Origin: Parcubacteria group bacterium Gr01-1014_72
GTDB lineage: Bacteria > Patescibacteriota > Minisyncoccia > Phycocordibacterales > VMFH01
Assembly (NCBI GenBank): GCA_007375925.1
Contig: VMFH01000001.1
Coordinates: forward strand, 1-28,636
Direction: 5' to 3'
Length of the DNA stretch: 28,636 nucleotides
Shown here: positions 2,632 to 21,765 of the stretch, in pieces
Layout: each line of letters begins with the position of its first letter
Numbering within the stretch: the first letter of the stretch is position 1
Notes under the pieces: model-generated
Database searches by the model: none
Seen by the model: only the letters and a program-made list of their open reading frames with translations
What the model was told of the DNA's origin: nothing
Made by a program: the position numbers and the translations under genes

Positions 2632-4056
2632 TTACACCGCCTCTCTGTATGGGTCCTGTTCGTAGCGTTTTGGAGGCGGTGGTGGAACAGTAATGCGGTT
2701 TGATGTCCCACGAACAATACCGGAGAGTTTTTCGGCAACGAGGTTTCCACTGGCAGTTTCAGTGGAGATTGTTCGTATTTCTTGCGGAGGCGCAGGCCTA
2801 AGCGTCTCCGCCGCCGGCCGAGGAGGACGCGGCGAAACCGGCGGCATGAGTGGGGCCTGCGGCGGCTCCTTCGGGCGACTTTCAAACCGCGCCGGAGGCG
2901 TGCCTATGGGCAGATTTGCGGGAGGTTGTGGTTTCGTAGGAACGTATAGCGCGGCAGGTAGGGGCGGTCGCGGAGGGACGGGGCTTGGCGCCAGTGTGTT
3001 CATTCGTGAGAGCGATGTTACGGGAGGGACCTCAATGTCGCGGAGTACCTCATCGCGCCGAAGCGCGCTCTCCTCGGGAGTCGGTACAGCTGGCCCGGCG
3101 CTCTCCTTCTCCACCATGATGCCCGCCTCCACTGCCGCGCGCTCTTCGTGGATTTCGTGCAGGGCATCACGTATCTCCCGAAATACTCCTTCATTGACCG
3201 CTTTTCCGATGAGCGTCGCTTTTTCCCTGCTTGTGCGCAGGCGTGTTTCAAGGTGGCCGATGAAATCGCCCGGGTGCGTGAGCCCCACCATGAGGAGTCC
3301 CGATTCACTGGCGACGGCGCCGATCTGGTCAATGTGGAGCCCAAATGTCTGCCCGATTTCCTGTAATTTCTGCGCGACATCCACAGAGGTGACGGCTTGC
3401 TTGACGCTCGCGGGCACTTTCGCGTACGCGACCTCAATGCGCTCCTTCGTGTAGCCCGTTCCCTTCGCGATATCAATGAGCTTCGCGATGACTGACCCCT
3501 CAAGAATCTCGGACGGTTTCGGTTTCGGCGACTCTGTCGTCGGACGAGACAGGGGCGGCAGAAGCGGCTCTGCCATCGGTCGAGGCGGAGGAAGCGGTGG
3601 ACGTGGTACTGAAATACCTTGCGGCACTCTCGGAGTGGGAGCTCCCGAGGGTGTGATAAGATTTTTCTGTTTGCTTGGAGTTAGCGTTCCCATGTTCGGA
3701 AATATGGCGGTGGGGCGAGGAGATGGTACTGGCAGAGTGCGGACTCCCACAGCAGCCGATGTCGTCACAGGCACATTTCCAGATGAACCGACAATATTTT
3801 TAATGAAGAGGTCAGCAATTTCTCCCGCCCGCGCCCTCTGCTCATCACCAAGCTCCTTCTCAAGAAGGGTAATTGTCTCTCCGCGGGTGGGCTGTTTACC
3901 CGCGAGCAAGTTTGATGCGAGCGAGTAGAGAGCGCCGATTTCATCAAGCGTCAGGTCAAACACGGCGCCGACATCGTCGCAGAGGGAGATGTAATCCTTG
4001 TCAGTTTTGCCCTTTACGGCAGCACGTATTTTTTTGAACTCGTCAAAGTAATTCAT
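2632..4056 (-). CDS. Proline-rich hypothetical protein with duplicated helical domain and C-terminal DPYRE motif (474 aa)
   Basis: Long ORF co-oriented in the operon; GLHIDQIG..G.THP.DF..L...L domain; ends QDPYREAV, a motif I recognise from Parcubacteria proteins. Confidence 0.8.
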   Translation of the reverse strand: MNYFDEFKKIRAAVKGKTDKDYISLCDDVGAVFDLTLDEIGALYSLASNLLAGKQPTRGETITLLEKELGDEQRARAGEIADLFIKNIVGSSGNVPVTTSAAVGVRTLPVPSPRPTAIFPNMGTLTPSKQKNLITPSGAPTPRVPQGISVPRPPLPPPRPMAEPLLPPLSRPTTESPKPKPSEILEGSVIAKLIDIAKGTGYTKERIEVAYAKVPASVKQAVTSVDVAQKLQEIGQTFGLHIDQIGAVASESGLLMVGLTHPGDFIGHLETRLRTSREKATLIGKAVNEGVFREIRDALHEIHEERAAVEAGIMVEKESAGPAVPTPEESALRRDEVLRDIEVPPVTSLSRMNTLAPSPVPPRPPLPAALYVPTKPQPPANLPIGTPPARFESRPKEPPQAPLMPPVSPRPPRPAAETLRPAPPQEIRTISTETASGNLVAEKLSGIVRGTSNRITVPPPPPKRYEQDPYREAV

Positions 4057-4062
4057 GGTGTT

Positions 4063-6999
4063 TTATGGGTTCGCGGCCAAGAACTGATTCAGAAGTGTAT
4101 CGTAGCTTGCCTGTGTCGCTGAATCGGTGCTCAGTCGGTTCCAGTCCGTGAAGAATTCCTTCCCCCTCCTGTCTTTAAGGAGCCATAGGAGTGCGTCTTT
4201 GTTCTCAACCGTCATCTGCTTTTGAGCATTTCCGGGATTTGCAATTTCGCGCGCAAATTCGTCAAGCAGGTGCGTGGCAATCTTAAAGTGGTCGTCCGTG
4301 TCCTTCTCGCGCATAGTTGTCGTAGCGAGGACTGTTCGCGTGAGGCGCCGCAGATATGATTTCTGTTGCCAGATGCGGCCGGGTGCCATGGCGATTTCCG
4401 ACGGCGACCGCCCGCGAAGCGCCTCACCAAGCGCCTCCTCCCCCCTCTCCGCATAGAAGTCTTGTGTTGTCGAGAAGTCGTTCTCATACCGTTCACGAGA
4501 AGGCAGTGAGAGGTCGCGTACCTTACCACGTAGTTTCTCAATCTTTATCTTCTCCCACCCCTCATCGCTCATGCCGACACTTTGTGCCGCAAGAATTTCG
4601 TAGATTTCCTGAACGGGTTTCAGCACTTTTTTCTGATCAGGCGTTGCTGTAGCGTACTCTGTATTTATCCTGCTGAGCGCGCCCGTCCAGTTGTTAATCG
4701 CATCGGCATTCGGCGCTTCAACACCGAGACCGTTCGTCCGGTCAAGCGCGCGCACCGCGGAGATATTCTTGAGGTCGCGCATATTCTCCTTCTCCGCTTC
4801 TCCGAAGGACTCGCTCTTGCGGATGTCATTTATGATGCCGTAGCGAAGGGTGGAGACAAAGGTGGGGTCGGTAAACATCTCGGGACTTGCCCAGTGCATC
4901 TGCTCAATTTCTTTCATTGAGTAGGAGCGAACCTTGTCATAGACACGCTTCGGCAGTTTAAGCTTCCCTTTCTTCACCATCTCCTCACGGAAGTTCTTAA
5001 GCGTATCCTCCTTGCCTTGAAGCGTCATTGTGCCGGCCTTAATTTCATCATCACAACGCTTCGCGATTGCGCGCAGTTCTCCCTCATCCACCTTGAGACG
5101 TTTCAGTCCATCAGAAACGGGTTTATTGCGTGCATTGACATACTGTTTGCGCTCTTCAGTCGTGTGATCCTCCGACCTCATGAGTGCATCCATCTGCGCG
5201 TTGGTGAGGAATTGAGCAACGTCAGAGTCCTTAAGAAGATCTTTCGGCATTGAGGTTGTTCCTTCAAGAGAAATCTGTGAGACAGCCCTTTGTATCGCGG
5301 CCGGATCTTTGAAAGTCCCATCCGGATTTCGCTCGGCCGTGCGGATCATCTTTACCGCGGAGTCTCGCGCTTCTATGTCAGCAAGGCGCGCCTTCCGTTG
5401 CTTGTCCTCCTTATATGCCTCCTGCACAGACTTATCCCCGATTTTCATGGAAACGAGTCCCCCTGTTGTCATCTCGCGAACCTTGCCTCCGACGAATGTG
5501 CTGCCAAGATATGACTTGCCGATTTTCTCATCAAGTTTGCGAACACCCCACTCCCCCTTGAGTTTATTGAGGAGCGGTATTCGCTTCGCGACGGCCTGGA
5601 ATGCTCTGCTCTCGCCTTTGATAGTGACCCCGCGAAGTCCTTGCCGTCCCACCGCCGCCCACATGCCGGTCTCAAGACCCTGGATACTCTTGCCCCACTT
5701 CTGGAACGTCTCGGCGCCGAAAGCCCCCATGTCAACTGCAAGTTTGAGTGTGAGCATCATGAGCGAGATGAGGATGAGGAAGTTGACGATGATGCTGATA
5801 CTCCCCGGCTGCGAGCTCGTGAGCGCGGCGGCGAAGGATTGCTCGCTCGTCCCGACGCCCAAGGTCGCCACCCCCGTTTTGAAGGCGCCCGACTGGACGA
5901 CGCTGATGACGACATAGGTGAGCGCGAGGTAGGCGGGGGCGAAGAGCGCATTTTGAATGAGAAGCTTCCACCACGTACTCGTATACGATGCGAGTCCGGG
6001 CAGGATCCACGCGGCGAAGGCAAGAGGCGACGTCGCCATAAGCATCATGAGCATAACTCCGCGGAAGATGAACATGATCGCTCCCGCGAAAAATACGAAG
6101 GCGGTGATGAGCATGAAGATGGAGCCGTAGATGGTAACGAGCGTGATGCTGAAGGCGACGTTGAGACCGGCCTTCACGCCAAGCCCTTCGCTCCCGTAGA
6201 GCGTCTGAATCCGGAGCCCCTCCATGAGTTTCGCGGCGATGCCGTTGTCAAGGGCGATTGCGGTCGCGCCCGATCCCGTCTGCGCGCTCGTAATATTCGT
6301 CGGTTCCACAATGAGGTCGTAGAAGTGAATGGCGATGATGTTCGTTCCGTCCACGACGGCCTTCGTGATGAAGAGCGAGAAGTTGACGAGGAGCGCGATG
6401 ATGATGAGCTTGCCGACGAGCTTGCGCGGGCCGTCTCCGCCGAGGCCGAGTATGGTCTGGATGGAGATGTAGAGGAGGATGAAGATGAAGAGAATGTTCG
6501 TGAGGTCGCGGAAGATGCGCCAGCCGATGTCAACGACGGGAATTTTCTGGAGGAACGCATCCATGTTGATGATGCTGTTGATTGAGAAATCAAGGAGGAG
6601 TCCCGCGAGCCAGACGAGGCGCGAGACGAGCGACATAAGAATATTCCCCACCTCGGCGAAGCAGGAGATGAAGTTGATGCCACTCGGGATAAACCCTGCG
6701 GTGAAGGTGATACACCCCGGAATCTGGGGCGGTGTGTTCTTGACCGCCGTCGCGGCTTGCTTCTGCGCAACTCCCGTTTGTCCTACGACAGAAGTTGGCC
6801 CTGGCGCGCGTGTATTATCCAAACCTGGAAGGACAGCATCAATTCCCGGAATGCCCTCTTCGGGAAGAGTCCCTTCTAGAAGTCCTCCAGTTTGGTCTAC
6901 GCCTTGTGCGTGAGCGCTCTGCGGCAAAAATCCTACTGCCCCGAGGAGTACCCCGAGGAGAGCAAGCAGTAGAAATTTTTTTCTAAAAAAATTTTTCAT
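4063..6999 (-). CDS. VirB6/TrbL-like polytopic membrane protein with long C-terminal tail (978 aa)
   Basis: Signal peptide (SAHA-QG); GWRIFRDLTNILFIFILLYI...LIIIALLVNFSLFITKAVVD..N and SPLAFAAWILPG...WW...LF helices; start ATG 6999 directly after the upstream TAA (7001-7003). Confidence 0.8.
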   Translation of the reverse strand: MKNFFRKKFLLLALLGVLLGAVGFLPQSAHAQGVDQTGGLLEGTLPEEGIPGIDAVLPGLDNTRAPGPTSVVGQTGVAQKQAATAVKNTPPQIPGCITFTAGFIPSGINFISCFAEVGNILMSLVSRLVWLAGLLLDFSINSIINMDAFLQKIPVVDIGWRIFRDLTNILFIFILLYISIQTILGLGGDGPRKLVGKLIIIALLVNFSLFITKAVVDGTNIIAIHFYDLIVEPTNITSAQTGSGATAIALDNGIAAKLMEGLRIQTLYGSEGLGVKAGLNVAFSITLVTIYGSIFMLITAFVFFAGAIMFIFRGVMLMMLMATSPLAFAAWILPGLASYTSTWWKLLIQNALFAPAYLALTYVVISVVQSGAFKTGVATLGVGTSEQSFAAALTSSQPGSISIIVNFLILISLMMLTLKLAVDMGAFGAETFQKWGKSIQGLETGMWAAVGRQGLRGVTIKGESRAFQAVAKRIPLLNKLKGEWGVRKLDEKIGKSYLGSTFVGGKVREMTTGGLVSMKIGDKSVQEAYKEDKQRKARLADIEARDSAVKMIRTAERNPDGTFKDPAAIQRAVSQISLEGTTSMPKDLLKDSDVAQFLTNAQMDALMRSEDHTTEERKQYVNARNKPVSDGLKRLKVDEGELRAIAKRCDDEIKAGTMTLQGKEDTLKNFREEMVKKGKLKLPKRVYDKVRSYSMKEIEQMHWASPEMFTDPTFVSTLRYGIINDIRKSESFGEAEKENMRDLKNISAVRALDRTNGLGVEAPNADAINNWTGALSRINTEYATATPDQKKVLKPVQEIYEILAAQSVGMSDEGWEKIKIEKLRGKVRDLSLPSRERYENDFSTTQDFYAERGEEALGEALRGRSPSEIAMAPGRIWQQKSYLRRLTRTVLATTTMREKDTDDHFKIATHLLDEFAREIANPGNAQKQMTVENKDALLWLLKDRRGKEFFTDWNRLSTDSATQASYDTLLNQFLAANP

Positions 7000-10479: not shown

Positions 10480-10618
10480 TCTCCTTAGAAGTTCAGTAAC
10501 AAAACAAAAACAACAAAGGGTTTCTAACCCTTTGTTCCGAGAGTGCTCGGACGAAATGAAAAGTTGGAACCTTTCATTTCGCTCTCCGCTCGTCGGAACC
10601 AACCAAAGGAGGCATGTC

Positions 10619-12043
10619 GTGAAGATTACTCTCATGTCGGTGTTTCTCGGGCTCGTACTGCCCCTCGGCGCGCCTCTCTTTGGTGCCCAAAGTACGCTCA
10701 AAGTCATTGTGGAATGGCTGGAACAGGAAGTTACCTGGTACCCAGCGGTGCCCTACTCGCGCGTTTATTTCCTCAAGGCGCGCATCATGGCGACGGAGGA
10801 TGTATACCTCCACTCGCTGGAAGTTTGGCCATGGGGGACGGTGAAGTACTCCTCCATTTTTACGCGGATCGTGCTTGCCAAAGAGGACCGCACCATGATC
10901 GGATACGATCTTGATGAGAGTGGCAGGTTCGTGCGAGACAGCAGTAACAAAGTGCTTCCACAGGAGACCGTCGCGCTCTTTACCCCCCTCAAACTTCTCG
11001 CGCGAACGCCCGTCACACTTCTCATTGGAGGTGAGATCGGGCCAATTGACGAGGAGTCAGGAAACCTCCTGACACTCAAGGCCTTCGGTCTTACGGTGAA
11101 GAAGGATGATAAATGGAACAGTCCTCCACTCAACCCCTCTGTTGTCACGGGTTTTCCCATGGCGGGACGGGTCTTTACGTTGCGGGCGACCAGAACGATT
11201 GGGAGTATCACCCTTGAGAACGACCCATCGTTTAAGAGCCATGAGGTGACGGATACCGGCAAGGAAGTCGTCCTCGGCCGTTTCAAGATGAAGGTTGGGC
11301 CCGAAAACGGGTTCGACGTGCGGAATGCCTACATGCGCTTCAACGCGAGTGTGGGATTTGCGCATGCGAAGGATGTCACAGACATTACTCTTGAGCTCGA
11401 AACACCATTCTCCTTGTACCGGTACAGCACACGCGGGTCCCTCAACTACGACGACTGGTATCAACAAAAAATCGCCTTTAATAGAGGCTCATGGACAGAC
11501 GCTGATTGTGAAGGGTGTCCGGTCTACCCATCGGTTGATGCGGGTGAGTGGTGCACGATAGAGCTTCGCGGTCGCCTCGGAAAGACATTCCGGAACGGTA
11601 GCACAATCTCTGTGGAGCCGGACGTGGTAAGGTGGTCGGGTTTTGACCCCTCGCTTCTCTATGTAGAGGAGTATGAGGTGATACCGACGCGCACTACCGA
11701 ACCGCCGACAGTTCTGACGGTCAATGTGCCGGGCATGAAAATGCCGGAGGTGAGGCTGATCCTGTCGAAAGTTCTCGACTCTGGCGGTCAGTCTGATCTG
11801 GACTACTTTCGGGCTTACTTAAAAATGGAAAGTGAGCCGTGGCGCTTCGCCATTCTGGAGTACTCCACAAATTTTGTTGACTGGCGAGAATTCCCCTCGC
11901 TATATAGACTGGATTCTGTCGCGACCGATGCGCAAGGGAAAGGGTCTATTGAGATTTTGGTGTACAAAGTGCACGCACCTCAACAGATCTTCTTCCGGAC
12001 AAAGAACTACTACCCCGGATATATACGCAGAAGTAATTGGTAA
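10619..12043 (+). CDS. Secreted/surface protein with beta-rich (Ig-like) regions and a C-terminal LEYSTN..DW...FFR domain
   Basis: AAGGAGG (10606-12) 6 nt before GTG 10619; hydrophobic signal VKITLMSVFLGLVLPLGAPLFGA; own promoter and terminator. Confidence 0.8.
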   Translation: MKITLMSVFLGLVLPLGAPLFGAQSTLKVIVEWLEQEVTWYPAVPYSRVYFLKARIMATEDVYLHSLEVWPWGTVKYSSIFTRIVLAKEDRTMIGYDLDESGRFVRDSSNKVLPQETVALFTPLKLLARTPVTLLIGGEIGPIDEESGNLLTLKAFGLTVKKDDKWNSPPLNPSVVTGFPMAGRVFTLRATRTIGSITLENDPSFKSHEVTDTGKEVVLGRFKMKVGPENGFDVRNAYMRFNASVGFAHAKDVTDITLELETPFSLYRYSTRGSLNYDDWYQQKIAFNRGSWTDADCEGCPVYPSVDAGEWCTIELRGRLGKTFRNGSTISVEPDVVRWSGFDPSLLYVEEYEVIPTRTTEPPTVLTVNVPGMKMPEVRLILSKVLDSGGQSDLDYFRAYLKMESEPWRFAILEYSTNFVDWREFPSLYRLDSVATDAQGKGSIEILVYKVHAPQQIFFRTKNYYPGYIRRSNW

Positions 12044-12072
12044 TGAAGGTTGTATGTGCGGGTACTCTCACG

Positions 12073-12147
12073 GGCCGTTCCGCTATCCGCCTCCGTCTCC
12101 GCCAGTTGGCGGATGACGGATGGCGGAGCGGAACGGCCTTTTTCTTT
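12073..12147 (+). terminator. Compound intrinsic terminator containing a tccgccagttggcgga core
   Basis: Outer stem ggccgttccgc/gcggaacggcc, nested tccgcc, tccgtc, tccgcc stems, followed by tttttcttt; lies between convergent genes. Confidence 0.85.
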
Positions 12148-12182
12148 GGCAGAGAGAGTTTTCGGGTGTGGGTGCGCAAACA

Positions 12183-13094
12183 TTACTGCAGGATATTGAA
12201 AATCGCTCCCGGCTCACCTTCGCTGAAATGAACACCCTGCAGCTTAAAAAATTTCGCGAGACGAAAATGTACCTCTACTGACGCAACGACCGCTTCGTTG
12301 TAACTCTGAAATGCCTCGGCCGGAATACTTCCCTTTTGTGCAAAACTGGCAAGTTCTGCTACTGCCGCTCCCTGCGCGACATATGCGTTCGCGAGTATGA
12401 TATGGAGCCCGCTCGTCATGGGGGGATATTCCGAGATATTTTTCAATGCAATACCAAGGGAGCTGTACTTGATCCCAACTTCGCCAAGTGCCGCGATGTT
12501 TTCCGCGTTCGGCGTTCTCAGAGCAGTCATGAATAGTTCCGCCTCACGAAACTCCTTCCCTTTGAGGTGCGCGAGGATTACGCTTCCAATCACATTTGCA
12601 TATTTGCGAGGCGCCAGCGTTTCCTCGCTCTCCTCTCGCGGCGGCGCTAACACCTCAATCTCCCCAGAGACTTCCTTCTCTGCTCTATTCTGTGTAGGTT
12701 CGGGTGCGGGGGGAGAAGCAGGAGGGAATAGTTTGAGCATTGATGGGAGGAAATCTTCTCTCGGAAACGGGGGGCGCAGTAAAGCGTCGGTACTACGATC
12801 CTTTGGCCCCTGCTTTTTCGGATCTCTTCCCAGACGCACCTCCTCGCCGTCATCGGTACCATCCTTATCGGTGTCCCGTTCTTTTGGATTGGTCCCGTGT
12901 AGCTCTTCTTCAAAATCAAACAGCAAATCGCCATCAGAGTCTTTTATAAACGTCGCCGCTTCCCTCTCTTCGGAGAATTGTTTTATCACTGTACTCTTTT
13001 CCGTTCCCACCGGAACATCGGCGCCACCTCGTGATAGGATGGTTGCGATAATGAGTACTACCGCGATGAGTGCAGTGACGAGAAACGACGGCAT
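12183..13094 (-). CDS. TSP3-repeat membrane-anchored protein (303 aa), paralog of 9392-10357
   Basis: N-terminal TM helix, DSDGDLLFDFEE and DTDKDGTDDGEEVRLGRDP motifs, helical C-terminal domain ending FFKLQGVHFSEGEPG. Confidence 0.85.
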   Translation of the reverse strand: MPSFLVTALIAVVLIIATILSRGGADVPVGTEKSTVIKQFSEEREAATFIKDSDGDLLFDFEEELHGTNPKERDTDKDGTDDGEEVRLGRDPKKQGPKDRSTDALLRPPFPREDFLPSMLKLFPPASPPAPEPTQNRAEKEVSGEIEVLAPPREESEETLAPRKYANVIGSVILAHLKGKEFREAELFMTALRTPNAENIAALGEVGIKYSSLGIALKNISEYPPMTSGLHIILANAYVAQGAAVAELASFAQKGSIPAEAFQSYNEAVVASVEVHFRLAKFFKLQGVHFSEGEPGAIFNILQ

Positions 13095-13142
13095 ACCGCA
13101 TCATGATAGCGCACATGCCGGCTATGGTATACTTCTTTTACG

Positions 13143-13496
13143 ATGAAATCGCGTGGACTCCCCTTTTTTGCGAGCGCCTTAATTTTTCCTCTTCTCCTCC
13201 TTTCAGTGCCAAGTAATGCGCACGCGATCATACCAATACCCTGTGCGATCGGTATCTGTATCGGCGGCCCGCCGATTAGCTCTGTTATACCATGTGTGAA
13301 CGGACTGTGGATTGACGGTATTTTTATGTATATCTATGGTACGAAAACGTTTCCAATAGCACCCCCGACGCACCCGGGCCAGTTTGTGCTCGGCTCGGCG
13401 GCGGGGTTCATGGTCTGCCTTCAGCCGTGCCCCATCGGTCTTTGCCCGATTGGCGGGGGATTTATCATACTTCCTTTGACAGGGGCAAGCGCATAA
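13143..13496 (+). CDS. Small secreted Cys-rich protein (117 aa)
   Basis: Signal peptide ending NAHA; six Cys in the mature part; extended -10 TGgTATACT (13125-33) 9 nt before the ATG. Confidence 0.75.
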   Translation: MKSRGLPFFASALIFPLLLLSVPSNAHAIIPIPCAIGICIGGPPISSVIPCVNGLWIDGIFMYIYGTKTFPIAPPTHPGQFVLGSAAGFMVCLQPCPIGLCPIGGGFIILPLTGASA

Positions 13497-13518
13497 CGTA
13501 ATCATTACCCCCCTATCG

Positions 13519-13550
13519 TCGTGTCAATTCGCCGCGGCGAATTGACACGA
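13519..13550. repeat. Perfect 32 bp palindrome (GTGTCAA...TTGACAC type)
   Basis: tcgtgtcaattcgccgcggcgaattgacacga equals its own reverse complement. Confidence 0.95.
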
Positions 13551-13560
13551 TTTTACGGCC

Positions 13561-13656
13561 TTATGGGGCCCTTCTACGCATCGCGCTTTTTGTCAGACAC
13601 TTCCACGCGTCGGGGGTAAGATTCTCCGCGCGCGCGGTTTCCAGCCCACACGTCAA
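13561..13656 (-). pseudogene. rsmA: Displaced 3' fragment of a second rsmA allele
   Basis: Translates LTCGLETARAENLTPDAWKCLTKSAMRRRAP*; aligns with the intact RsmA C-terminus HCGISTNARPENLTRAEWKCL (12 identities); shares tggaagtgtct and aatcttac at DNA level. Confidence 0.75.
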
Positions 13657-13700
13657 CCTGCCAGGTCGGCGTCTTGAAACGGCTCTATTGAGGCATATTT

Positions 13701-14486
13701 CTACTGCTCAATTTTTTTGTTTGCAGCAAGACACTTCCACTCTGCACGCGTAAGATTTTCAGGACGGGCGTTTGTGGATATCCCGCAATGCTCAAAAACT
13801 TCCAATGAGACTCCGAGAACACTTCGCAACAACTTCCTTTTTTTAGAAAAGCCTTTTTTTAGGAGTGCAAAAAATTTTTCTTCTTCAGCCACATCGGCGA
13901 AAAGATTACGAGAAATGTTTTCTATAGCGATAATTGCCGAATCAACTTTCGGTGGAGGCGAGAAACTTCCGGCTTTCACGGTATCAATGTAGTGGGGCAT
14001 TCCGTATGCCTTTACGCTTATGGAGAGAATACTCTCCTTTCCGTCCGCGGCGATGATGCGTTTCGCAACCTCCTTCTGAAGGAGGAGCACCATGCGTGAC
14101 GGCTGTTCCTGCGTGCTTAAAAATTTTTTGAGGAATGCGCCGGTGATGTAGTAAGGGAGATTTGCTACGAGCTTGTAGCTCATAGCTAGTAGCTGGTAGG
14201 CAAGAGGGTTAAAGAGAAGAATATCTTGTTGTATAAGAGTGAGTCGTCCGGAAGTGATTTCACTGAAGAATTTTTCCTGGAGGAGTGGGATGAGGCGCGC
14301 GTCCTTTTCAACGGCGACGACGCGCGCGCCTGCGCCAAGCAGGCGCGCGGTGAGAACCCCCTCCCCGGGTCCCACCTCAAGCACCGTTTCTCCGGGCGTA
14401 AGATGCGCCGCCGCAACTATTTTTCGTAGCGCCCCTTCCGAACGCAGAAAATGCTGCCCTAGCGATTTTTTCCTTAAAACTCTCAT
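13701..14486 (-). CDS. rsmA: 16S rRNA m6,2A dimethyltransferase RsmA/KsgA
   Basis: KKSLGQHFL, VLEVGPGEG, VANLPYYIT, QKEVAKRI, F.PPPKVDSA motifs. Confidence 0.97.
   Translation of the reverse strand: MRVLRKKSLGQHFLRSEGALRKIVAAAHLTPGETVLEVGPGEGVLTARLLGAGARVVAVEKDARLIPLLQEKFFSEITSGRLTLIQQDILLFNPLAYQLLAMSYKLVANLPYYITGAFLKKFLSTQEQPSRMVLLLQKEVAKRIIAADGKESILSISVKAYGMPHYIDTVKAGSFSPPPKVDSAIIAIENISRNLFADVAEEEKFFALLKKGFSKKRKLLRSVLGVSLEVFEHCGISTNARPENLTRAEWKCLAANKKIEQ
14172..14199. repeat. Four tandem heptamers (CTNNTAG) inside rsmA
   Basis: cttgtag ctcatag ctagtag ctggtag; encodes YQLLAMSYK just before VANLPY. Confidence 0.7.
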
Positions 14487-14513
14487 CAAATTTTATTCTT
14501 CCCAAATGTCCCA

Positions 14514-14543
14514 GGTGTCAATCCGCCGCGGCGGATTGACACC
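14514..14543. repeat. Perfect 30 bp palindrome (GTGTCAA...TTGACAC type)
   Basis: ggtgtcaatccgccgcggcggattgacacc; differs from the 13519 core by one compensatory T-A to C-G pair. Confidence 0.95.
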
Positions 14544-14550
14544 AGTAGTC

Positions 14551-16500
14551 TCAATCGAAATGAATGGTTTTGCTCGGCGTGCTTCTGTTATAGAGCGCGA
14601 TCTCCTCTTCGAGCGACTCTTCGGGAACGTCAAAGATGAACTCGGAGGGAACGTTTAGCTGTCGCATGCCGAAGATGAGGCGACTCCCCGCATAGGAGAG
14701 GATCACCTTTTTTCGGGCGCGGGTGACGGCAACATAGAAGAGGCGCCGTTCCTCTTCCGCTTCCGCGCCGGAGAGCGCCTCCTCTGAGAGGCGCCGGTGC
14801 GGAAAAAGGTCCTCCTCAAGTCCGGTGATGAAGACGCAGTCAAACTCAAGACCTTTCGACGCGTGCACCGTGAGGAGCTTCACCGCGTCGCACTCCTTCA
14901 TGAGCTCGTCCTGGTCGCTCGCGAGCGCGGCGTCTGTGAGAAAGTGCAGAACGCCCGCGGGGCCTTCGCGGTCGTAGCGCGCGGCGAAGCTCGCGAGCTC
15001 GCGGATGTTTTCCAGCCGCTCCTCCCCTTCCGCATCGCTCTCCTTGAGCGCTTTGCCTTGCCCCGTCTCCGCAAGGATGAAGCGGACGAGCTCGCTCGGC
15101 GGTTTCCGCTCGCTCGCTTCCTTGATGCGTGCGAGGAGGGAGCGAAATGAAACGAGCCTTTCCTTCATCGCGGCGGGGAGTTCTCCCTCGCGGCCGGCAA
15201 GAATCTTTAGGAGAGAAACTTTTCCGATGCCCCGCGGAGGCACATTGACGATGCGTTTGAAGTCGGAAATTGAATCAGGCTCGCGCGCGACGCGCAGGTA
15301 CGCGAGCACGTCTTTCACTTCACGCCGCTCAAAGAAACGTGTGCCGAGCACTTGGTACGGGACATCGGCCATGAGGAATGCCTCCTCAAGCGAGCGCGAC
15401 TGAAAGTTCGCGCGGTAGAGCACGGCTATCTCGCGTGCGGGAACACCCTCCGCAATGAGGCGCCTTGCACGATCGGCGACGAAGCGCGCCTCGTCCGTCT
15501 CGTCAATCGCCTCAAAGAGGCCCACGCGCTCGCCCTCGCGGTTCGCGGTGAAGAGATTTTTCTCGCGGCGGAATTTGTTTTTCGCGATGACGCGGTTCGC
15601 CACATCAAGAATCCGCTTCGTGGAACGGTAGTTCTCCTCAAGGAGCACCACGCACGCCTCGGGGTAGTCCTTCTCAAACTCAATAATGTTTTTGATATTC
15701 GCCCCGCGCCAGCCGTAGATTGATTGATCCACGTCGCCGACGACGCAGATATTTTTCTCCGTTCCCGCAAGCGCGCGGGCGAGGAGGTACTGCACGCGGT
15801 TCGTATCTTGGTACTCGTCAATATGAATGTAGCGCCAGACGCGCGCGTAGTGTTCCCGAATCTCCGGCTGCGCAAGGAGCTCGTGCGCCTTGAGGAGAAG
15901 GTCATCAAAATCAAGCGCCTTCTCGGCGCGAAGGAGCGCGTCGTAGCGCTCCCACACCCGCGCCACCAGTTCGCCGAAGTAGTCTCCCAAGGCTGTCTCG
16001 CGGTAGGAGGCAAGGCCGACCGCATTTCCCTTCTCGCGCGAGATGGCGCCTTGCACCTTCCCCGCGTCAATCTGCTTCGGATCGTGGCCGCTCTCTCGCA
16101 GCGCGTCTTTGAGCGCGCGGATTGAATCGGCGCGGTCAAAGATTCCGAAGCGCCGCGGCACACCGACCCGCTCGCCCTTCTCGCGGAGGATGTGCACCGC
16201 GAGTGCGTGGAAGGTGGAGACGAAGGGGTGTTCGTGAAAGGAGACGGGGAGGTTTAGCGTCGCATCTTCCGCGATGAGCCGCTCCACGCGCCCCTGCATC
16301 TCACCAGCCGCCTTGTTCGTGAAGGTGATAGCGAGAATTTCATGCGGGGCGACGCCGCCATGAAGGAGATGGAGGATTCGGTGCGCGATGACGCGCGTTT
16401 TTCCAGCGCCCGCACCGGCGATGATGAGAAGCGGTCCCTTCGTGTGAAGGGCCGCTTCTTTTTGGCGCGCATTCAGCTTTTCAAGGTGTGAGTTGTGCAC
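14551..16500 (-). CDS. pcrA: PcrA/UvrD superfamily 1 DNA helicase
   Basis: AGAGAGKT, ITFTNKAA, DEYQDTN, VGDVDQSIYGWRGA, LEENYRS, TVHASKGLEF, EERRLFYVAVTRA; lacks the C-terminal Tudor-like tail. Confidence 0.97.
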   Translation of the reverse strand: MHNSHLEKLNARQKEAALHTKGPLLIIAGAGAGKTRVIAHRILHLLHGGVAPHEILAITFTNKAAGEMQGRVERLIAEDATLNLPVSFHEHPFVSTFHALAVHILREKGERVGVPRRFGIFDRADSIRALKDALRESGHDPKQIDAGKVQGAISREKGNAVGLASYRETALGDYFGELVARVWERYDALLRAEKALDFDDLLLKAHELLAQPEIREHYARVWRYIHIDEYQDTNRVQYLLARALAGTEKNICVVGDVDQSIYGWRGANIKNIIEFEKDYPEACVVLLEENYRSTKRILDVANRVIAKNKFRREKNLFTANREGERVGLFEAIDETDEARFVADRARRLIAEGVPAREIAVLYRANFQSRSLEEAFLMADVPYQVLGTRFFERREVKDVLAYLRVAREPDSISDFKRIVNVPPRGIGKVSLLKILAGREGELPAAMKERLVSFRSLLARIKEASERKPPSELVRFILAETGQGKALKESDAEGEERLENIRELASFAARYDREGPAGVLHFLTDAALASDQDELMKECDAVKLLTVHASKGLEFDCVFITGLEEDLFPHRRLSEEALSGAEAEEERRLFYVAVTRARKKVILSYAGSRLIFGMRQLNVPSEFIFDVPEESLEEEIALYNRSTPSKTIHFD

Positions 16501-16610
16501 GCGCTGTACTATATCATACAGTGCTCGCGGGTCTCTCTTTCAATTTTGTTCCATATTTTTCGCCCTATGTTCCATGATTTCCGCTGTCCCCACCCCCTCC
16601 CCACCCCTCG

Positions 16611-16638
16611 TTGACTTCACCCCTGCCTTCGCTATAGT
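16611..16638 (+). promoter_or_regulatory. sigma70-type promoter for the M23 gene
   Basis: TTGACT (16611-16), 16 nt spacer, TATAGT (16633-38). Confidence 0.6.
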
Positions 16639-16826
16639 AGAGAGGTCCTGTCACGGGCGCAAACGGTCAGTATGGCTCAACCGAGCCCTTTTCTGGAAGA
16701 TTGAGTGATTTACCGGCTAAGATTTGGCTTATTCCTCTCACCCTTCATGACCCCGCTTCGAACGGCCAGGTAGGCCGAAAGAGGCGGGCGACATATATTG
16801 GTTTTTGTTGGAGCACGCGCCTTTCT

Positions 16827-17822
16827 ATGGGGGCAGTGCTTGGTTCCCTTTTCATGGCTACCATTGTCTTTCCTTCCGTCGCCGCGGCGGGAGTTTTTTC
16901 TTTCTTTGCAGAGTTGTTTTCAGATAGGGACGAACGGGCACAGGCGGCAAGCGTCGGAAACGCCCAGACGATGGCGCTCCTGGAAGCCGCGCGCAACCGT
17001 GACCCGAATCCTTCAAAAGGGGGCGGTGATATAACGATTGTCGGCGGCACGGCGCTTCTTCCCGAGACCGGTCCCTCCGGCACCATTGCGAACATTGAGG
17101 ATACTCCCCTCGCGGGTGAAATCAGCATCTACGTTGTACGCGAGGGAGATTCCCTCTCCGCCATTTCCAAGATGTTTGGGGTGTCGGTGAACACGATCGT
17201 GTGGGCGAACGACATCAAAAATGCCATCATTCGCCCCGGCGACCGGCTCGTCATTCTCCCCGTGTCCGGCGTCCAGCACACCGTTAAGAAAGGGGAGACA
17301 ATCCAGAGCATCGCCCTCAAGTACAAAGCTGACCTTGCCGAGGTGCTCCAGTTCAACGACCTCCAGCCCGGCGCGGAGCTCGCCATCGGTTCAACCGTCA
17401 TCATCCCGGATGCCGAGCTCGCCGCTCCGATACTCACCATGCCGTCTCGCGTCCGCGGCGCGGGCGGGCCGTCATACGACGGATACTACCTCCGGCCCGT
17501 TGCCGGCGCTCGCAAGACGCAGGGGCTCCACGGGTACAACGGCATTGATCTCGGCGCACCCGAAGGTACCCCGGTGCTTGCCGCCGCGTCAGGACAGGTC
17601 ATCATCAGCAGAAATTATGGCTGGAACGGAGGGTACGGCAACTATGTTGCGATTGAGCACGGCAACGGGACCCAGACGCTCTACTCGCACCTCTCGCTCA
17701 ACGCCGTGTTTGAAGGGTTCCATGTCGCGCGCGGACAGATCATCGGGTACGTCGGGCAGACCGGCAAGGTGACCGGCCCGCACCTCCACTTTGAGGTCCG
17801 CGGGGCAAGGAATCCGTTTTGA
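16827..17822 (+). CDS. Peptidoglycan endopeptidase with two LysM domains and an M23 domain
   Basis: YVVREGDSLSAIS and HTVKKGETIQSIA (LysM); HGYNGID, GGYGNYV.I.H, TLYSHL, GQTGKVTGPHLHFEV (M23). Start placed at ATG 16827 before the hydrophobic N-terminus. Confidence 0.93.
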   Translation: MGAVLGSLFMATIVFPSVAAAGVFSFFAELFSDRDERAQAASVGNAQTMALLEAARNRDPNPSKGGGDITIVGGTALLPETGPSGTIANIEDTPLAGEISIYVVREGDSLSAISKMFGVSVNTIVWANDIKNAIIRPGDRLVILPVSGVQHTVKKGETIQSIALKYKADLAEVLQFNDLQPGAELAIGSTVIIPDAELAAPILTMPSRVRGAGGPSYDGYYLRPVAGARKTQGLHGYNGIDLGAPEGTPVLAAASGQVIISRNYGWNGGYGNYVAIEHGNGTQTLYSHLSLNAVFEGFHVARGQIIGYVGQTGKVTGPHLHFEVRGARNPF

Positions 17823-17841
17823 TTCACGAAATTTGAAACAC

Positions 17842-17892
17842 AAAAACCGTCCCGCTCCGCCAGTTGGCGGATAGCGGGACGGTTTTTCTTTT
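17842..17892. terminator. Bidirectional intrinsic terminator containing a tccgccagttggcgga core
   Basis: aaaaaccgtcccgc/gcgggacggttttt stem with A- and T-tracts, between the convergent M23 and comM genes. Confidence 0.9.
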
Positions 17893-17909
17893 TCCTACTG
17901 CGCTACCCA

Positions 17910-19469
17910 CTACAAACTACCACCTAGTTTCTTCGGTCGGTACGACAGCGCTTCCAGAAGATGATGTTCGCGGACATCCAGCGCTCCCTCTAGGTCGGCG
18001 ATGGTGCGGGCGAGCTTGATGACGCGGTGGTAGCCGCGTCCCGAGAGGCCGAGCTTCTCTGCCGATGAGGCGAGGAGCGTTTTCTCTCTGTCGGGGAGCG
18101 GCACGAAGCGTTCAATATCGCGAACGTTCATCTCGGAGTTTGTTGTGATGCGTCTTCCCGCCTTCACGAAGCGTTTCCCCTGCACCCGGCGCGCCTGTTC
18201 TACTCGTCGGCGAATACCCTCGCTTTCTTTGTCGCCCTCATCCGGCTTCTTCTCGCCGAGCGCTTTGATCGGCATGCGCGACACCTCAATCCAGAGGTCA
18301 ATGCGGTCAATGATGGGGCCCGAGATTTTTCGTTGGTAGCGCTGTATGGAGAGCGGCGTGCAGATGCACTCTTTGCCTCGCGTGCCGAAATTTCCGCATG
18401 GACAGGGATTGAGCGCCGCAATGAGGATGAAGTGCGCCGGAAACTCCGCCGTGCCTTTCGCGCGCGAGATTGAGACGACCCTGTCCTCAAGCGGTTGGCG
18501 CAGGGCCTCAATGACGCGGCGGTCAAACTCGGCGAACTCATCTAAGAAGAGGACGCCCTTGTGCGCGAGCGTTACTTCGCCCGGGCGCGGGAACGTGCCG
18601 CCGCCGACCATCGCGACGTAGGAGGAGGTGTGGTGTGGCATACGGACAGGGGGCTCTCTGACAAGCGTGTTCCCGAGGGCGCCGGCAACGGAGTGTATCG
18701 CGGTAACATCCAGACACTCCTCGTGCGAGAGGGGCGGGAGAATGGTACGGAAGGCGCGGGCGAGCATCGTCTTCCCCGTCCCGGGCGGGCCCCACATTGC
18801 GAGGTTGTGCGCTCCCGCGGCGGCGATCTCAAGTCCGCGCTTCGCGCTCTCCTGACCGCGCACGTCCGAGAAATCAAGCTCCGGCCGCGCTCCCGCGCGC
18901 GCGATTCTCGTCGGGGGCGTGGGGAGAAGTTTTTTCGCGTCCCCCTCTCCCGCGGTGTTGAGGTGATTGATGATGTCGCCGAGGTGCGAGGCGGCGAAGA
19001 CGGAAATCCCTTCAATGAGTGCCGCTTCAGCGGCGTTCTCGGCGGGAAGAAACACCTCGCGGATGCCCGCCCTTTGCGCACTACGAACAATCGGGAGTAC
19101 CCCGCGAACTGGGCGGAGTCCCCCATCAAGCGAGAGTTCGCCGATGAAGAGCCGCCCCACTGGATCAAACCGGATGTCCTCTGCCGCAAGGAGGTACGCG
19201 AGCGCAATCGGCAGATCAAAGAGAGGCCCCTCTTTCTTGAGATCCGCCGGTGCGAGTGAGATGGTTATCCTCTGGTTCCGATGTTTCGGCGACTTGAAGC
19301 CGCTGTTTTTGATGGCGGCCGAGACACGATCCTTTGATTCCTCCACACCTTTGTCGGGAAGGCCGACGATTGAGAACGCGTGGAGCCCCTTTGAGAGGTC
19401 AACCTCAACAGTAATGAGACCTGCCGAGAGGAGGTTTGCCTGGCCACTACCGACCTTCGCGAAGGGCAT
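17910..19469 (-). CDS. comM: ComM/YifB MCM-like AAA+ ATPase
   Basis: VEVDL..GL..FSIVGLPD, DLKKEG..FDLPIA, GPPGTGKTMLAR, RPGEVTLAHKGVLFLDEF, LRQPLED, NPCPCG, SGPIIDRID, ARTIADL. Confidence 0.96.
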   Translation of the reverse strand: MPFAKVGSGQANLLSAGLITVEVDLSKGLHAFSIVGLPDKGVEESKDRVSAAIKNSGFKSPKHRNQRITISLAPADLKKEGPLFDLPIALAYLLAAEDIRFDPVGRLFIGELSLDGGLRPVRGVLPIVRSAQRAGIREVFLPAENAAEAALIEGISVFAASHLGDIINHLNTAGEGDAKKLLPTPPTRIARAGARPELDFSDVRGQESAKRGLEIAAAGAHNLAMWGPPGTGKTMLARAFRTILPPLSHEECLDVTAIHSVAGALGNTLVREPPVRMPHHTSSYVAMVGGGTFPRPGEVTLAHKGVLFLDEFAEFDRRVIEALRQPLEDRVVSISRAKGTAEFPAHFILIAALNPCPCGNFGTRGKECICTPLSIQRYQRKISGPIIDRIDLWIEVSRMPIKALGEKKPDEGDKESEGIRRRVEQARRVQGKRFVKAGRRITTNSEMNVRDIERFVPLPDREKTLLASSAEKLGLSGRGYHRVIKLARTIADLEGALDVREHHLLEALSYRPKKLGGSL

Positions 19470-19474
19470 AAGAG

Positions 19475-19537
19475 AAAATTTCTAATGACTACTTTCTAAT
19501 ATCTAATAGGAATTAGGAATTCTTGAATTAGGAATTT
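19475..19537. repeat. AT-rich degenerate inverted repeat (ctaat/attag units)
   Basis: aaaatttctaatgactactttctaatatctaat followed by aattaggaattcttgaattaggaattt, between dksA-like and comM. Confidence 0.6.
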
Positions 19538-19541
19538 CCCC

Positions 19542-19898
19542 CTATCCCATGTGCCGTTTGCATGTCGTTGCGGCGGGGTTTGCGTTCAGACGGTCTTCCT
19601 CAATCGCCTCTCCGCCGACAGCGCAGTTGCCGTAGGCGCCCTCCGCAATCCGTTTGAGCGCGCTCTTCACCTCGTTGTAGCGGATCTCCAGCTGTTTCAA
19701 GATCGCCGCGTTCTCCTCAAACGCCTCCATGCTGTCGGCAACCTCATTCTGGTCAGAGGCAAGTATATCCATTTTTTCTGGCACCGGCTCCCAGTCGGCC
19801 GGGTTTGACGGATTCACGCGCCCGACGCTCTTGAGCTCCGCCTCAAGCGTTTTGAGTTCTTCCTCAAGCTTCTGTTTGTATCCATCAAGATTTTTCAT
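19542..19898 (-). CDS. TraR/DksA-family protein
   Basis: Coiled coil with DQNEVAD tip, ALKRI..G.YG.C and RL.ANPAATTCKRH; start ATG 19898. Confidence 0.85.
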   Translation of the reverse strand: MKNLDGYKQKLEEELKTLEAELKSVGRVNPSNPADWEPVPEKMDILASDQNEVADSMEAFEENAAILKQLEIRYNEVKSALKRIAEGAYGNCAVGGEAIEEDRLNANPAATTCKRHMG

Positions 19899-20017
19899 GG
19901 TTCCATTATAGCAGAGCGGTGAAAAGAGCAAGGGCGTTCGAGTTGGCAAGATCGATGTTCTCTGATAGTCTTTTTTCGGATTCAAGACTACACAACCAAA
20001 CAATGAAAGGATAGCAA

Positions 20018-20233
20018 ATGAATGTACATTTTGACAGAAACTCCGGGCGGCTCATGTTGACCGCGCTAAACGAAGATGAGCGCGAGATGATTCGGGCGAT
20101 TTCGGAGACCCCCACTGCCTCCGGTCTTCCCGAACGCACGGGAAGCGGCGTGCCGTACCAAGTCATTCTTGACCTCACGGGGGTTACCGCGACGAGGAAG
20201 ATTTCTCGGGAAGAAGTCCCCGCCGGTTTCTAA
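20018..20233 (+). CDS. Small hypothetical protein (71 aa)
   Basis: AAAGGA shortly before the ATG; fills an otherwise empty spacer; plausible composition, no recognised family. Confidence 0.45.
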   Translation: MNVHFDRNSGRLMLTALNEDEREMIRAISETPTASGLPERTGSGVPYQVILDLTGVTATRKISREEVPAGF

Positions 20234-20304
20234 TTCGCGACTTCCCTAACAAATTCACAGAGCCGTTCCGATCTCTCGGAATGGCTTTTTTTAAGTTTCT
20301 AAAA

Positions 20305-21765
20305 TTAACGGACGAGCTGCCGTTGCAGGAGCCGCTTGTTGATTTCGGCGAGCGCCTCCTCGCTTCCCGCAATCACAATCGTCTCTTTGTCGGGGAGCGC
20401 ATAGATGAGCGTGGTCGTGCTGGTGTCCGAGCCTGCCTGCGCAGGCAGGCGAAGTACCCGCGCGTCTTTGTTGCGGACGACAATATCAACGAACGGCGTG
20501 GTGCGCAGTGACGTGGTCGTCCCGCGCGCGCTCCTTCCAATGAGGGGGACGAGATCGTCGCCGAGGTTGCGCTCCCACTGAAGCATCCCTGCGAAGGCGG
20601 TCTCAAAACTCTTCGTCTTGAAGACGATGAACGTCTCCTTCACGCTCCCTCCGTAGAAGCCGAGCGCGAAATTGTTTTCAATTGAGCGCAGGAGCGAAGG
20701 CGGCGCCTTGAGCTCCATGCGCTCCGCGAAGGCGCTCGCAGAGAGGGGTTCCGTCGGCGGGGTTCCGGGAGTCACTCTTTCCTTCAGCGCTTCGTCGCCC
20801 GTAGTTTCCGTCAGGGTGAGGAGGACGATTGTTCCCTTCGCGATGGTAACCTTTCCCCGTTCGTCGCGGATGAGGCGGATGAGCTCGGTGCGCTTCCTCC
20901 CTGCGGCCGGGAGTTCCCTGCTAGTTTCGGCCGAAATAATTGCAGAGCGCTCGCCCCTTTCTCCCTCTTGTGGCGGCGGCGATTCATTTTTTACTCGGAA
21001 CAAGAAGAGAGTTCCGATGGCACCTCCTCCGCCCAAGATGAGGACGAGACTTATGATTAAAAGCAGGCGCGCGCGTGAGGCGGTCGCGGCTGTCTCCTCC
21101 GGGAAAAGAACGGGGCCTGCGCCTGCCCGCGCGGCGGGGGCAGGCGGCACGGTGAGCGCTTCGAGCGGCACCTCTCCCCGCGGCGGCGAAGTGCGCGCTG
21201 GTTCGGCGGGGGCGCGAACGGTGTGTGTGGATGGCGGCACGCGAACAGGGGTCTCGGGGTCAAGGGGCGACACTTTTTCCGCCGGTGCGACGAGGCCGCC
21301 TTCTGGCGAAACTCCCGCGCTTGGAATTGGTACCGGAGGAGTAGCAGGTGTTTCTCGCCGAATGGCGCGAATGCCGCTTGCGGGTGCTGGGCTTGCGGCG
21401 GTTGCTCCCACGGGAGCGCTGGTTCGGGTCTCGGCGCTCCCCACCCCGACGGGGGGTGACTCGGTCTGAAACTCCGATCCTTGTAACTCTCCTCTCACCT
21501 CTTGCTCAAGCGCAGATTCAGCGCGCGCTGGTTTTGCCGCTGTGCTCTCGTCGGGGATTTGCGGCGCGACCTGTGGTCGCACCGCCCCCACTTTCTGTCG
21601 CGCGAGTTCGTTTGCGCGCCTGCTCTCGGCTATCGCAATCTTTGCAAGCGAGCCCTTTTGGGAGCGCAAGGCCGCCTCAACGTCCGCCTGGTAGGTGCGC
21701 AGCGGGCGGAGGATATCGTCTTTTTTCTCTGCGCTGTCTGTGCCGTCAGTGTTTTCCTGTGGCAT
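20305..21765 (-). CDS. CPR-type bitopic membrane protein with Pro/Ala-rich cytoplasmic linker (486 aa)
   Basis: LRTYQADV.....S...IAIAE N-terminal motif, single TM helix, F..AFAGML.WE..L..DL C-terminal domain. Confidence 0.85.
   Translation of the reverse strand: MPQENTDGTDSAEKKDDILRPLRTYQADVEAALRSQKGSLAKIAIAESRRANELARQKVGAVRPQVAPQIPDESTAAKPARAESALEQEVRGELQGSEFQTESPPVGVGSAETRTSAPVGATAASPAPASGIRAIRRETPATPPVPIPSAGVSPEGGLVAPAEKVSPLDPETPVRVPPSTHTVRAPAEPARTSPPRGEVPLEALTVPPAPAARAGAGPVLFPEETAATASRARLLLIISLVLILGGGGAIGTLFLFRVKNESPPPQEGERGERSAIISAETSRELPAAGRKRTELIRLIRDERGKVTIAKGTIVLLTLTETTGDEALKERVTPGTPPTEPLSASAFAERMELKAPPSLLRSIENNFALGFYGGSVKETFIVFKTKSFETAFAGMLQWERNLGDDLVPLIGRSARGTTTSLRTTPFVDIVVRNKDARVLRLPAQAGSDTSTTTLIYALPDKETIVIAGSEEALAEINKRLLQRQLVR
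20431..20450. repeat. Perfect 20 bp palindrome within a CDS (encodes LPAQAG)
   Basis: gcctgcctgcgcaggcaggc. Confidence 0.9.

Follow-up and report, generated by a model that had tools for sequence, protein, structure and literature searches.

GC-rich palindromic tips of a patescibacterial genome as modules of a REP-like hairpin-repeat population, and their possible origin by hairpin-templated copying

Elhai et al. are said to have described, in 2008, the repeats SDR1-8 of Nostoc punctiforme: near-identical hairpins of ~20-30 nucleotides (nt), nested in one another and arranged in tandem heptamer-like units, for which an RNA intermediate was reportedly proposed. Rickettsia palindromic elements measure ~100-150 base pairs (bp); template-switch mutations at quasipalindromes are treated in the Ripley model and in E. 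coli studies, and Monttinen and Loytynoja reportedly described, in 2022, the creation of RNA hairpins by template switching. Repetitive extragenic palindromes (REP), their REPIN arrangements and the associated RAYT genes concern short GC-rich intergenic palindromes, tens per genome and often at gene 3' ends (PMC3116915, PMC3733652); in published REPs of the CGTC type the first stem positions are A/T, and there is a CCA tail (PMC3733652). Here we describe four GC-rich palindromes in a window of 28,636 nt (the whole stretch analysed; contig VMFH01000001.1, positions 1-28,636, assembly GCA_007375925.1) from Parcubacteria group bacterium Gr01-1014_72. An earlier note on this window had taken them for one family of ~18-nt micro-elements, inserted in terminator loops and, in frame, in a coding sequence (CDS); the four palindromes are present where that note had placed them, with the sequences it gave. 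They are modules of a REP-like hairpin-repeat population rather than copies of a single 18-nt element. The closest published analogues would be the Nostoc SDR repeats and the REP/REPIN elements; no publication describing the hairpin-tip phenomenon in Patescibacteria was found.

Two of the four palindromes are long hairpins between genes, neither assigned to a strand. The first (12073-12138) lies between convergent open reading frames (ORFs; 10532-12043, plus strand; 12183-13094, minus strand), is followed by a T-run at 12139-12143 and has the nested layout GGCCGT-TCCGC-TA-(TCCGCC,TCCGTC,TCCGCC)-AGTT-(GGCGGA-T,GACGGA-T,GGCGGA)-GCGGA-ACGGCC, with a DNA fold of -36.5 kcal/mol (z = -8.5). The second (17842-17887), bidirectional and terminator-like, lies between an M23 peptidase gene (16701-17822, plus strand) and a ComM/YifB-like gene (17910-19469, minus strand) and reads A5-CCG-TCCCGC-TCCGCC-AGTT-GGCGGA-TA-GCGGGA-CGG-T5, with a fold of -23.2 kcal/mol (z = -9.4). 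Both have the form of intrinsic terminators, a GC-rich hairpin and then a T-run just past a gene; a simple terminator scan omitted both, presumably on account of bulges and the length of the stems. The 16-mer TCCGCC-AGTT-GGCGGA is found at 12098-12113 and at 17856-17871, and the unpaired TA reported beside it is real in both hairpins, 5' of the tip in the first and 3' of the tip in the second (the 17848 hairpin). The two had been called otherwise unrelated; CCGTYCCGC and GCGGRACGG, however, also surround the 16-mer in both, and the common stretch is ~34 nt, not 16. Both are copies of a module oriented by its AGTY loop, with 11 copies in the genome, composed of (C/T)YCCGC, (TCCGYC)1-3, AGTY, (GRCGGA)1-3 and GCGGRA, and with the consensus CG-TYCCGC-(TCCGYC)1-3-AGTT-(GRCGGA)1-3-NA-GCGGRA-CG. 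CG stands on both sides in 9/11 copies. The spare bases are mainly on the right arm: all seven single-TCCGCC copies have a 2-nt bulge (TA, CA or GA) 3' of the tip, and a left-side bulge occurs only in three multi-unit copies. The orientation of the module relative to transcription is mixed.

The host is a metagenome-assembled genome (MAG) of 570 kb in 77 contigs, 80%-complete, with 54% GC and of small-genome type; its closest database protein match is Candidatus Zambryskibacteria (Patescibacteria), and the closest GTDB genomes share only the order, each belonging to another family. This genome contains TCCGCC-N4-GGCGGA 19 times, TCCGCC-N2-GGCGGA nine times (eight with a GC centre) and TCCCGC-N3-7-GCGGGA 41-45 times, according to the treatment of overlaps, each with ~0 expected; the usual form of the last is CG-TCCCGCT-NNN-AGCGGGA-CG. 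The supposition that such motifs exceed expectation was thus confirmed genome-wide; shuffles of the window itself gave 0.00 and 0.06 expected matches against 2 and 3 observed. TCCGCC is the most frequent arm among all 6-N4-6 hairpins of the genome (19 copies), and TCCCGC the most frequent for N5 hairpins (28 copies). In third-order Markov simulations 0.4 perfect TCCGCC-N4 copies are expected; those with a single unpaired mismatch barely rise above background (9 vs 5.4 expected), and variants altered symmetrically on both arms do occur. Two TCCCGC matches on contig C63, within a tRNA region, are probably anticodon arms.

The 69 tip motifs in 570 kb are nearly all intergenic, which agrees with REPs as many short imperfect palindromes outside genes, and REP/REPIN-RAYT systems are further resembled in the presence of a Y1 transposase in the genome and of doublets in a relative. 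They are unlike those systems in that copies are mainly singletons, and in that what is conserved is no free-standing unit but the tip that a longer, locus-specific palindrome carries; a conserved GTAG tag appears to be absent, GTAG being seen in only a few copies (C55 508 and C59 22606). The 19 TCCCGCT-N3 copies have 14 distinct loops on a conserved stem sequence; 12 of them are flanked CG..CG, so that the stem starts with CGTC, but they have neither the A/T first stem positions nor the CCA tail of published CGTC REPs. Nesting of the SDR kind is present, with 1-3 TCCGYC units within TYCCGC stems and with ATTCGT or AGCTAC units flanking tips, and the likeness to the Nostoc repeats would lie in this very small nested hairpin structure; the phylum is another one, and the process indicated here is at the DNA level, whereas an RNA intermediate was reportedly proposed for the SDRs. 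Miniature inverted-repeat transposable elements, with conserved terminal inverted repeats and a target-site duplication, do not describe the motifs: the centre is conserved, the outer arms are locus-specific and there is no duplication.

A conserved stem with a free triloop could reflect recognition by a sequence-specific protein, which is one of the points weighed below. In its general form, the proposal would be that tips are not mobile and are selected as optimal terminators, as mRNA-stabilising hairpins or as sites of a dimeric protein, arising repeatedly by substitution in the manner of highly iterated palindromes (HIP). The intergenic position of nearly all copies, many with a T-run after them, fits this, as do the invariant stems with free loops, the recurrence of TCCGCC-AGCT-GGCGGA in at least eight families of the order, and the cores CCGCGG and CAGCTG, which are typical methylase or restriction sites. 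HIP1 is a precedent, arising through substitution and not insertion (PMC13756078). We nevertheless regard selection without mobility as distinctly improbable: the 11 module copies have an asymmetric AGTY loop and a side-specific bulge that hairpin function would not need, in mixed orientation to transcription; G:U pairs are not tolerated; and among 80 metagenome terminators whose outer stem is the same, AAACCGTCCCGC..GCGGGACGGTTT, none had the tip.

The third palindrome, perfect over 30 nt (14514-14543, no strand assigned; GGTGTCAA-TCCGCC-GC-GGCGGA-TTGACACC), sits in the 61-nt spacer between uvrD/pcrA (14551-16500, minus strand) and rsmA (13701-14489, minus strand), with its TCCGCC-GC-GGCGGA core at 14522-14535 and a fold of -15.9 kcal/mol (z = -6.8). 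It had been related to the terminator tips; it belongs instead to another family, in which TGTCAA/TTGACA arms enclose an interchangeable GC tip. This TGTCAA-tip-TTGACA family has six copies in the genome with six different GC tips, which differ by symmetric changes. One sibling (13522-13547, no strand assigned; TGTCAA-TTCGCC-GC-GGCGAA-TTGACA) stands downstream of rsmA, with the outer arms of 14516-14541 and a tip altered symmetrically on both arms. Gene rsmA is thus flanked on both sides by palindromes of this family (13522-13547, 14516-14541), and the -35 consensus TTGACA can be read in their outer arms on either strand.

Placement of tips into hairpin loops within the genome is supported, because sibling copies of larger repeats differ only by the tip that fills the loop. 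Composite repeat (a), ~110 nt long, consists of an outer stem, GAAAC-RCG, hairpin 1, CTATGCTC, hairpin 2 and CTGCGCAATG; its complementary outer stem is locus-specific, and the three junction sequences are conserved. Its loci in the host are C71:~4120-4240, C75:~3880-3990, C44:~1-110, C8:~1800-1930 and C59:~11690-11870. In three copies hairpin 1 is TCCCGC-TACT or TTCTA-GCGGGA; in the C71 copy it is TCCCGC-[TCCGCC-AGTC-GGCGGA-TA]-GCGGGA, and hairpin 2 alternates likewise in the C8 copy. Repeat (a) may be either a structured RNA or an element with nested hairpins; in an Rfam search the hairpins and repeat (a) matched no family, the sole match being a tRNA. Repeat family (b) (C26 2784, C65 4599, C8 57, C53 4131) has both flanks (CCCGCAGA, ATGAATGCGG) of the left-end hairpin of an IS200-like insertion sequence (IS), with the TCCCGC module inside. 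Between full and empty sibling copies the loops differ by ~13 nt, which resembles loop replacement. The claim that the motifs are hairpin tips placed in loops is therefore borne out by sibling repeats with and without a given tip; the discrete 18-nt unit is not, as the recurring unit is at least 30 nt and the loop difference ~13 nt. A metagenome scan for the 17848 outer stem, with any loop allowed, gave more than 120 matches, all of them unrelated generic terminators that have simple loops or extensions of their own stems; the tip was in none, so they do not serve as orthologous empty sites.

The fourth palindrome is perfect over 20 nt (20431-20450, minus strand), lies in the ORF at 20305-21765 and has the arms CCTGCCTGC / GCAGGCAGG plus a flanking G and C. 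The encoded protein of 486 aa, without a Pfam match, reads RVLR-LPAQAG-SDT across it. Orthologs are present in 40 of 41 same-order genomes; in a homolog search of a 5.8-billion-protein set the best matches had 36-40% identity. When the C-terminal 170 residues were aligned by MAFFT, the loop with the palindrome was 6 residues longer than in 19/19 orthologs (by seven against one of them), and after it the frame runs on into conserved sequence. The loop is unconserved, the gap is equally placeable in the adjoining S/T run, and LPAQAG may itself supply the conserved Gly. Judged from this alignment, the 20-mer is compatible with being the insertion itself: the extra length expected at LPAQAG was found, but the gap cannot be assigned to the palindrome. 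Membership in the same element family, also claimed for it, does not hold, as its arms are unrelated in sequence to the TCCGCC family; the one other copy of the CCTGCCTGC arms in the genome is intergenic, upstream of pgk (C14 ~500). The CDS palindrome looks like a locally made one, of the kind written into many host genes without change of length; the palindrome-making process proposed below would have produced it too, within a surface loop that is variable.

Independent Logan contigs of the same sequencing run match 11426-12307 and 20327-20973 with zero differences; because they are identical there, the sites of the 12073 hairpin and of the CDS palindrome are not MAG assembly artefacts. Among the contigs listed, none was shown to reach across 17856. 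The source run is groundwater. It is the one public run that holds the window DNA, as contigs only and at ~7x depth; in two further public runs almost no words of the window were present.

A single family of autonomous ~18-nt micro-elements (16 nt plus a 2-nt duplication), entering terminator loops and, with the frame kept, genes, is very improbable indeed on these results. It would account for the 6-residue excess over 19 orthologs, for the TA or NA dinucleotide beside the tip in most copies and for the second, intergenic copy of the CCTGCCTGC arms at C14; yet the recurring unit is too long for it, the sibling loops differ in a replacement-like manner and without duplication, the CDS palindrome has no similarity to TCCGCC and its gap fits the neighbouring S/T run equally well, and 10/11 tested perfect CDS hairpins outside recognisable repeats show no change of length.

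These CDS hairpins belong to a general excess. The genome holds 339 perfect hairpins (stem of at least 8 bp, loop of at most 8 nt) vs about 90-100 expected, and 128 with a stem of at least 11 bp vs 1-3 in Markov-3 simulations; 33 of the latter stem length lie inside confident CDS. Hairpins were tested in ArgRS (three, one with a 17-bp stem), RsmA, a GT4 glycosyltransferase (three), UvrC, MraY and FBA, and ten perfect ones (stems 10-17 bp) aligned gap-free with 3-24 orthologs; the rsmA hairpin (14323-14349, minus strand; perfect 11-bp stem) has no gap against 24 orthologs. Because no alignment gap is attributable to a hairpin, these ten arose where they stand, for the price of a few altered residues, and they agree with the expected product of a template switch, a perfect inverted repeat with length unchanged against orthologs. 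In the MraY-like transferase a perfect 13-bp stem (C32:7592-7619) lies in a conserved transmembrane helix, ~3 residues off the ortholog consensus. Hairpins with at least 12 pairs comprise 104 perfect ones and 35 with 1-2 mismatches; the sense-strand mismatches in CDS are G:T in 3 and A:C in 6 cases, and wobble pairs are not favoured. This dominance of perfect hairpins without wobble excess argues for symmetrising at the DNA level over selection on RNA folding.

Insertion of the Rickettsia kind, in frame, is real in the host, but by larger elements. A 63-nt repeat (97% identity between copies) with a GC palindrome core between AGCTAC units is read in the same frame in LeuRS (C41:2583-2645, in a 26-residue insertion) and in TsaD (C45:5895-5957, in a similar insertion), and it is missing from 5/5 orthologs examined; 6PGD (C38:2-934) carries in frame an insertion of ~30 residues, and a perfect AT-type palindrome 40 nt long lies in it at 429-468. 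In TGT, TsaD, TrmD and an HhH-GPD protein, similar palindromes encode the same peptide, of the form HSN-I/V-L-K/Q-N. Of the earlier view of the CDS palindrome, in-frame palindromic insertion in this genome is upheld by LeuRS, TsaD and 6PGD; frame preservation as a property of the element is not, the ten perfect CDS hairpins being no insertions. Rickettsia palindromic elements are resembled in these translated insertions in housekeeping genes; they are not resembled by the flagged CDS palindrome, which is 20 nt long and whose status as an insertion is only compatible with the alignment. If hairpin-templated copying does act here, annotators should expect perfect palindromes in genes of the candidate phyla radiation usually not to be insertions, and hairpin tips common to several terminators need not mark a transposon.

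That tips spread and stay perfect by hairpin-templated copying at the DNA level, through template switching within and between hairpins, is the reading we put forward, as a serious possibility that falls a little short of being probable. We infer this mechanism and its direction from what was observed directly: the counts, the nesting, the sibling tips, the gap-free CDS hairpins, the dominance of perfect stems, the lack of a wobble bias and the failure to find SbcD. A replicating strand would switch template within a hairpin and correct one arm against the other, turning a near-palindrome into a perfect one; a switch between hairpins with a common stem sequence would replace the loop of one by the tip of the other. 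Hairpins would be tolerated at gene ends and in spacers, where they may double as terminators, and the lineage appears to lack the hairpin nuclease SbcCD: SbcD (TIGR00619) was found in 0/21 genomes (the host and 20 of the same order), in a search whose control matched 13/14 reference genomes. Relatives' loci are alike in their density of long perfect hairpins (0.19 per kb, against 0.22 per kb), with families of their own in each genome. Template switching is favoured because no other reading covers at once the palindromes that align in CDS without gaps, the prevalence of perfect hairpins, the tip variants with symmetric changes and the exchange of tips among homologous repeats.

Template switching at quasipalindromes is resembled in the making of perfect inverted repeats in existing sequence with length unchanged (ArgRS, RsmA, MraY); it is exceeded in that the effect here is of genome scale (128 stems of at least 11 bp) and in that recurrent common tips would need an additional step between hairpins. 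If the reading is true, hairpin-templated copying is a mutational force on terminators, repeats and conserved protein segments of ultra-small genomes without SbcCD, the 13-bp hairpin in the MraY helix being an example, and it offers 'mobility' without a transposase. More tentatively still, and with considerable doubt, the GC-rich palindromic tips (14-36 nt) might be the smallest copy-and-paste DNA units of Patescibacteria, written into hairpin loops (of terminators, IS ends, other repeats and even tRNA-gene copies) by transposase-independent hairpin-templated replication, a process that would put perfect palindromes in essential genes as well.

Several points weigh against hairpin-templated copying. 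No copying event was seen directly, the closest homolog of the 486-aa protein being 36-40% identical, and there was no indel polymorphism at the palindrome sites in the contigs of the single run (~7x). The protein recognition mentioned above could also give a conserved stem with a free loop, and a Y1 transposase gene is present in the host. An identical 26-mer with asymmetric loop and bulge occurs in only three other, distant GTDB species (a member of Kerfeldbacteria, one of Saccharibacteria and another of Patescibacteria), in each at the top of a hairpin whose outer stem is peculiar to it, in 2/3 between terminator-like A- and T-runs. Its sporadic identity hints at horizontal spread, and it points to a discrete element that local template switching alone leaves unexplained. 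In viral contigs the 26-mer had no match, and among 400 sampled genomes of the phylum a 21-mer was found in the host genome only.

The main rival to hairpin-templated copying is mobilisation by a Y1 (HUH) transposase, an IS200-type TnpA or RAYT, which would move REP/REPIN-like miniature elements as single-stranded hairpins and find exposed single-stranded targets in loops. The host has a single Y1_Tnp gene (PF01797, 132.7 bits; C55:10453-10815, 142 aa, IS200-like) with GC-rich hairpins on both sides, and family (b) matches both sides of the left-end hairpin of this element. These hairpins (TCCCCGCCCC-TT-.. and TACCGCACCGC-TTGC-..), however, are not TCCGCC/TCCCGC modules, so that the host's only Y1 gene does not stand between copies of these modules, as a RAYT gene stands between its REPs. 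Y1_Tnp-like ORFs occur in 27/41 same-order genomes, several of them flanked by genome-specific palindromes, and tip motifs bloom patchily in genomes of the order (TCCGCC-N4 up to 13 copies, TCCCGC-N3-7 up to 116), but the Y1 counts do not follow the blooms: G005 has 17 motif copies and G024 four, and neither has a Y1 match. Inverted doublets of TCCCGC hairpins ~44 nt apart, REPIN-like, are present in relative G040; doublets as a replicative unit are not the rule in the host, where copies are mainly singletons and mostly without the GTAG tag. The 26-mer shared by three distant species would fit mobility, whereas the gap-free perfect CDS palindromes would be left unexplained. On balance we consider Y1 mobilisation unlikely, if less so than selection without mobility.

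Further arrangements were seen in relatives. The perfect 16-mer TCCGCC-AGCT-GGCGGA, recurrent in the order as given above, also occurs in G026 (C32:5300-6605), where two partial tRNA-Lys(CTT) copies (~381-445, ~829-902) flank a GIY-YIG-like ORF and an intact tRNA. Both partial copies have TCCGCC-AGCT-GGCGGA in place of GCAGGTGC; the intact tRNA-Lys (742-815) has the acceptor stem TCCGCCC/GGGCGGA, and the palindrome corresponds to an acceptor-stem minihelix. In the 80%-complete host genome no tRNA-Lys was found. Five other relatives (G009, G007, G003, G018, G038) have ORFs (220-270 aa) that match Y1_Tnp weakly, in a REPtron-like arrangement, and their loci contain 2-4 copies of a genome-specific palindrome ..AAGGTY-N-RACCTT..

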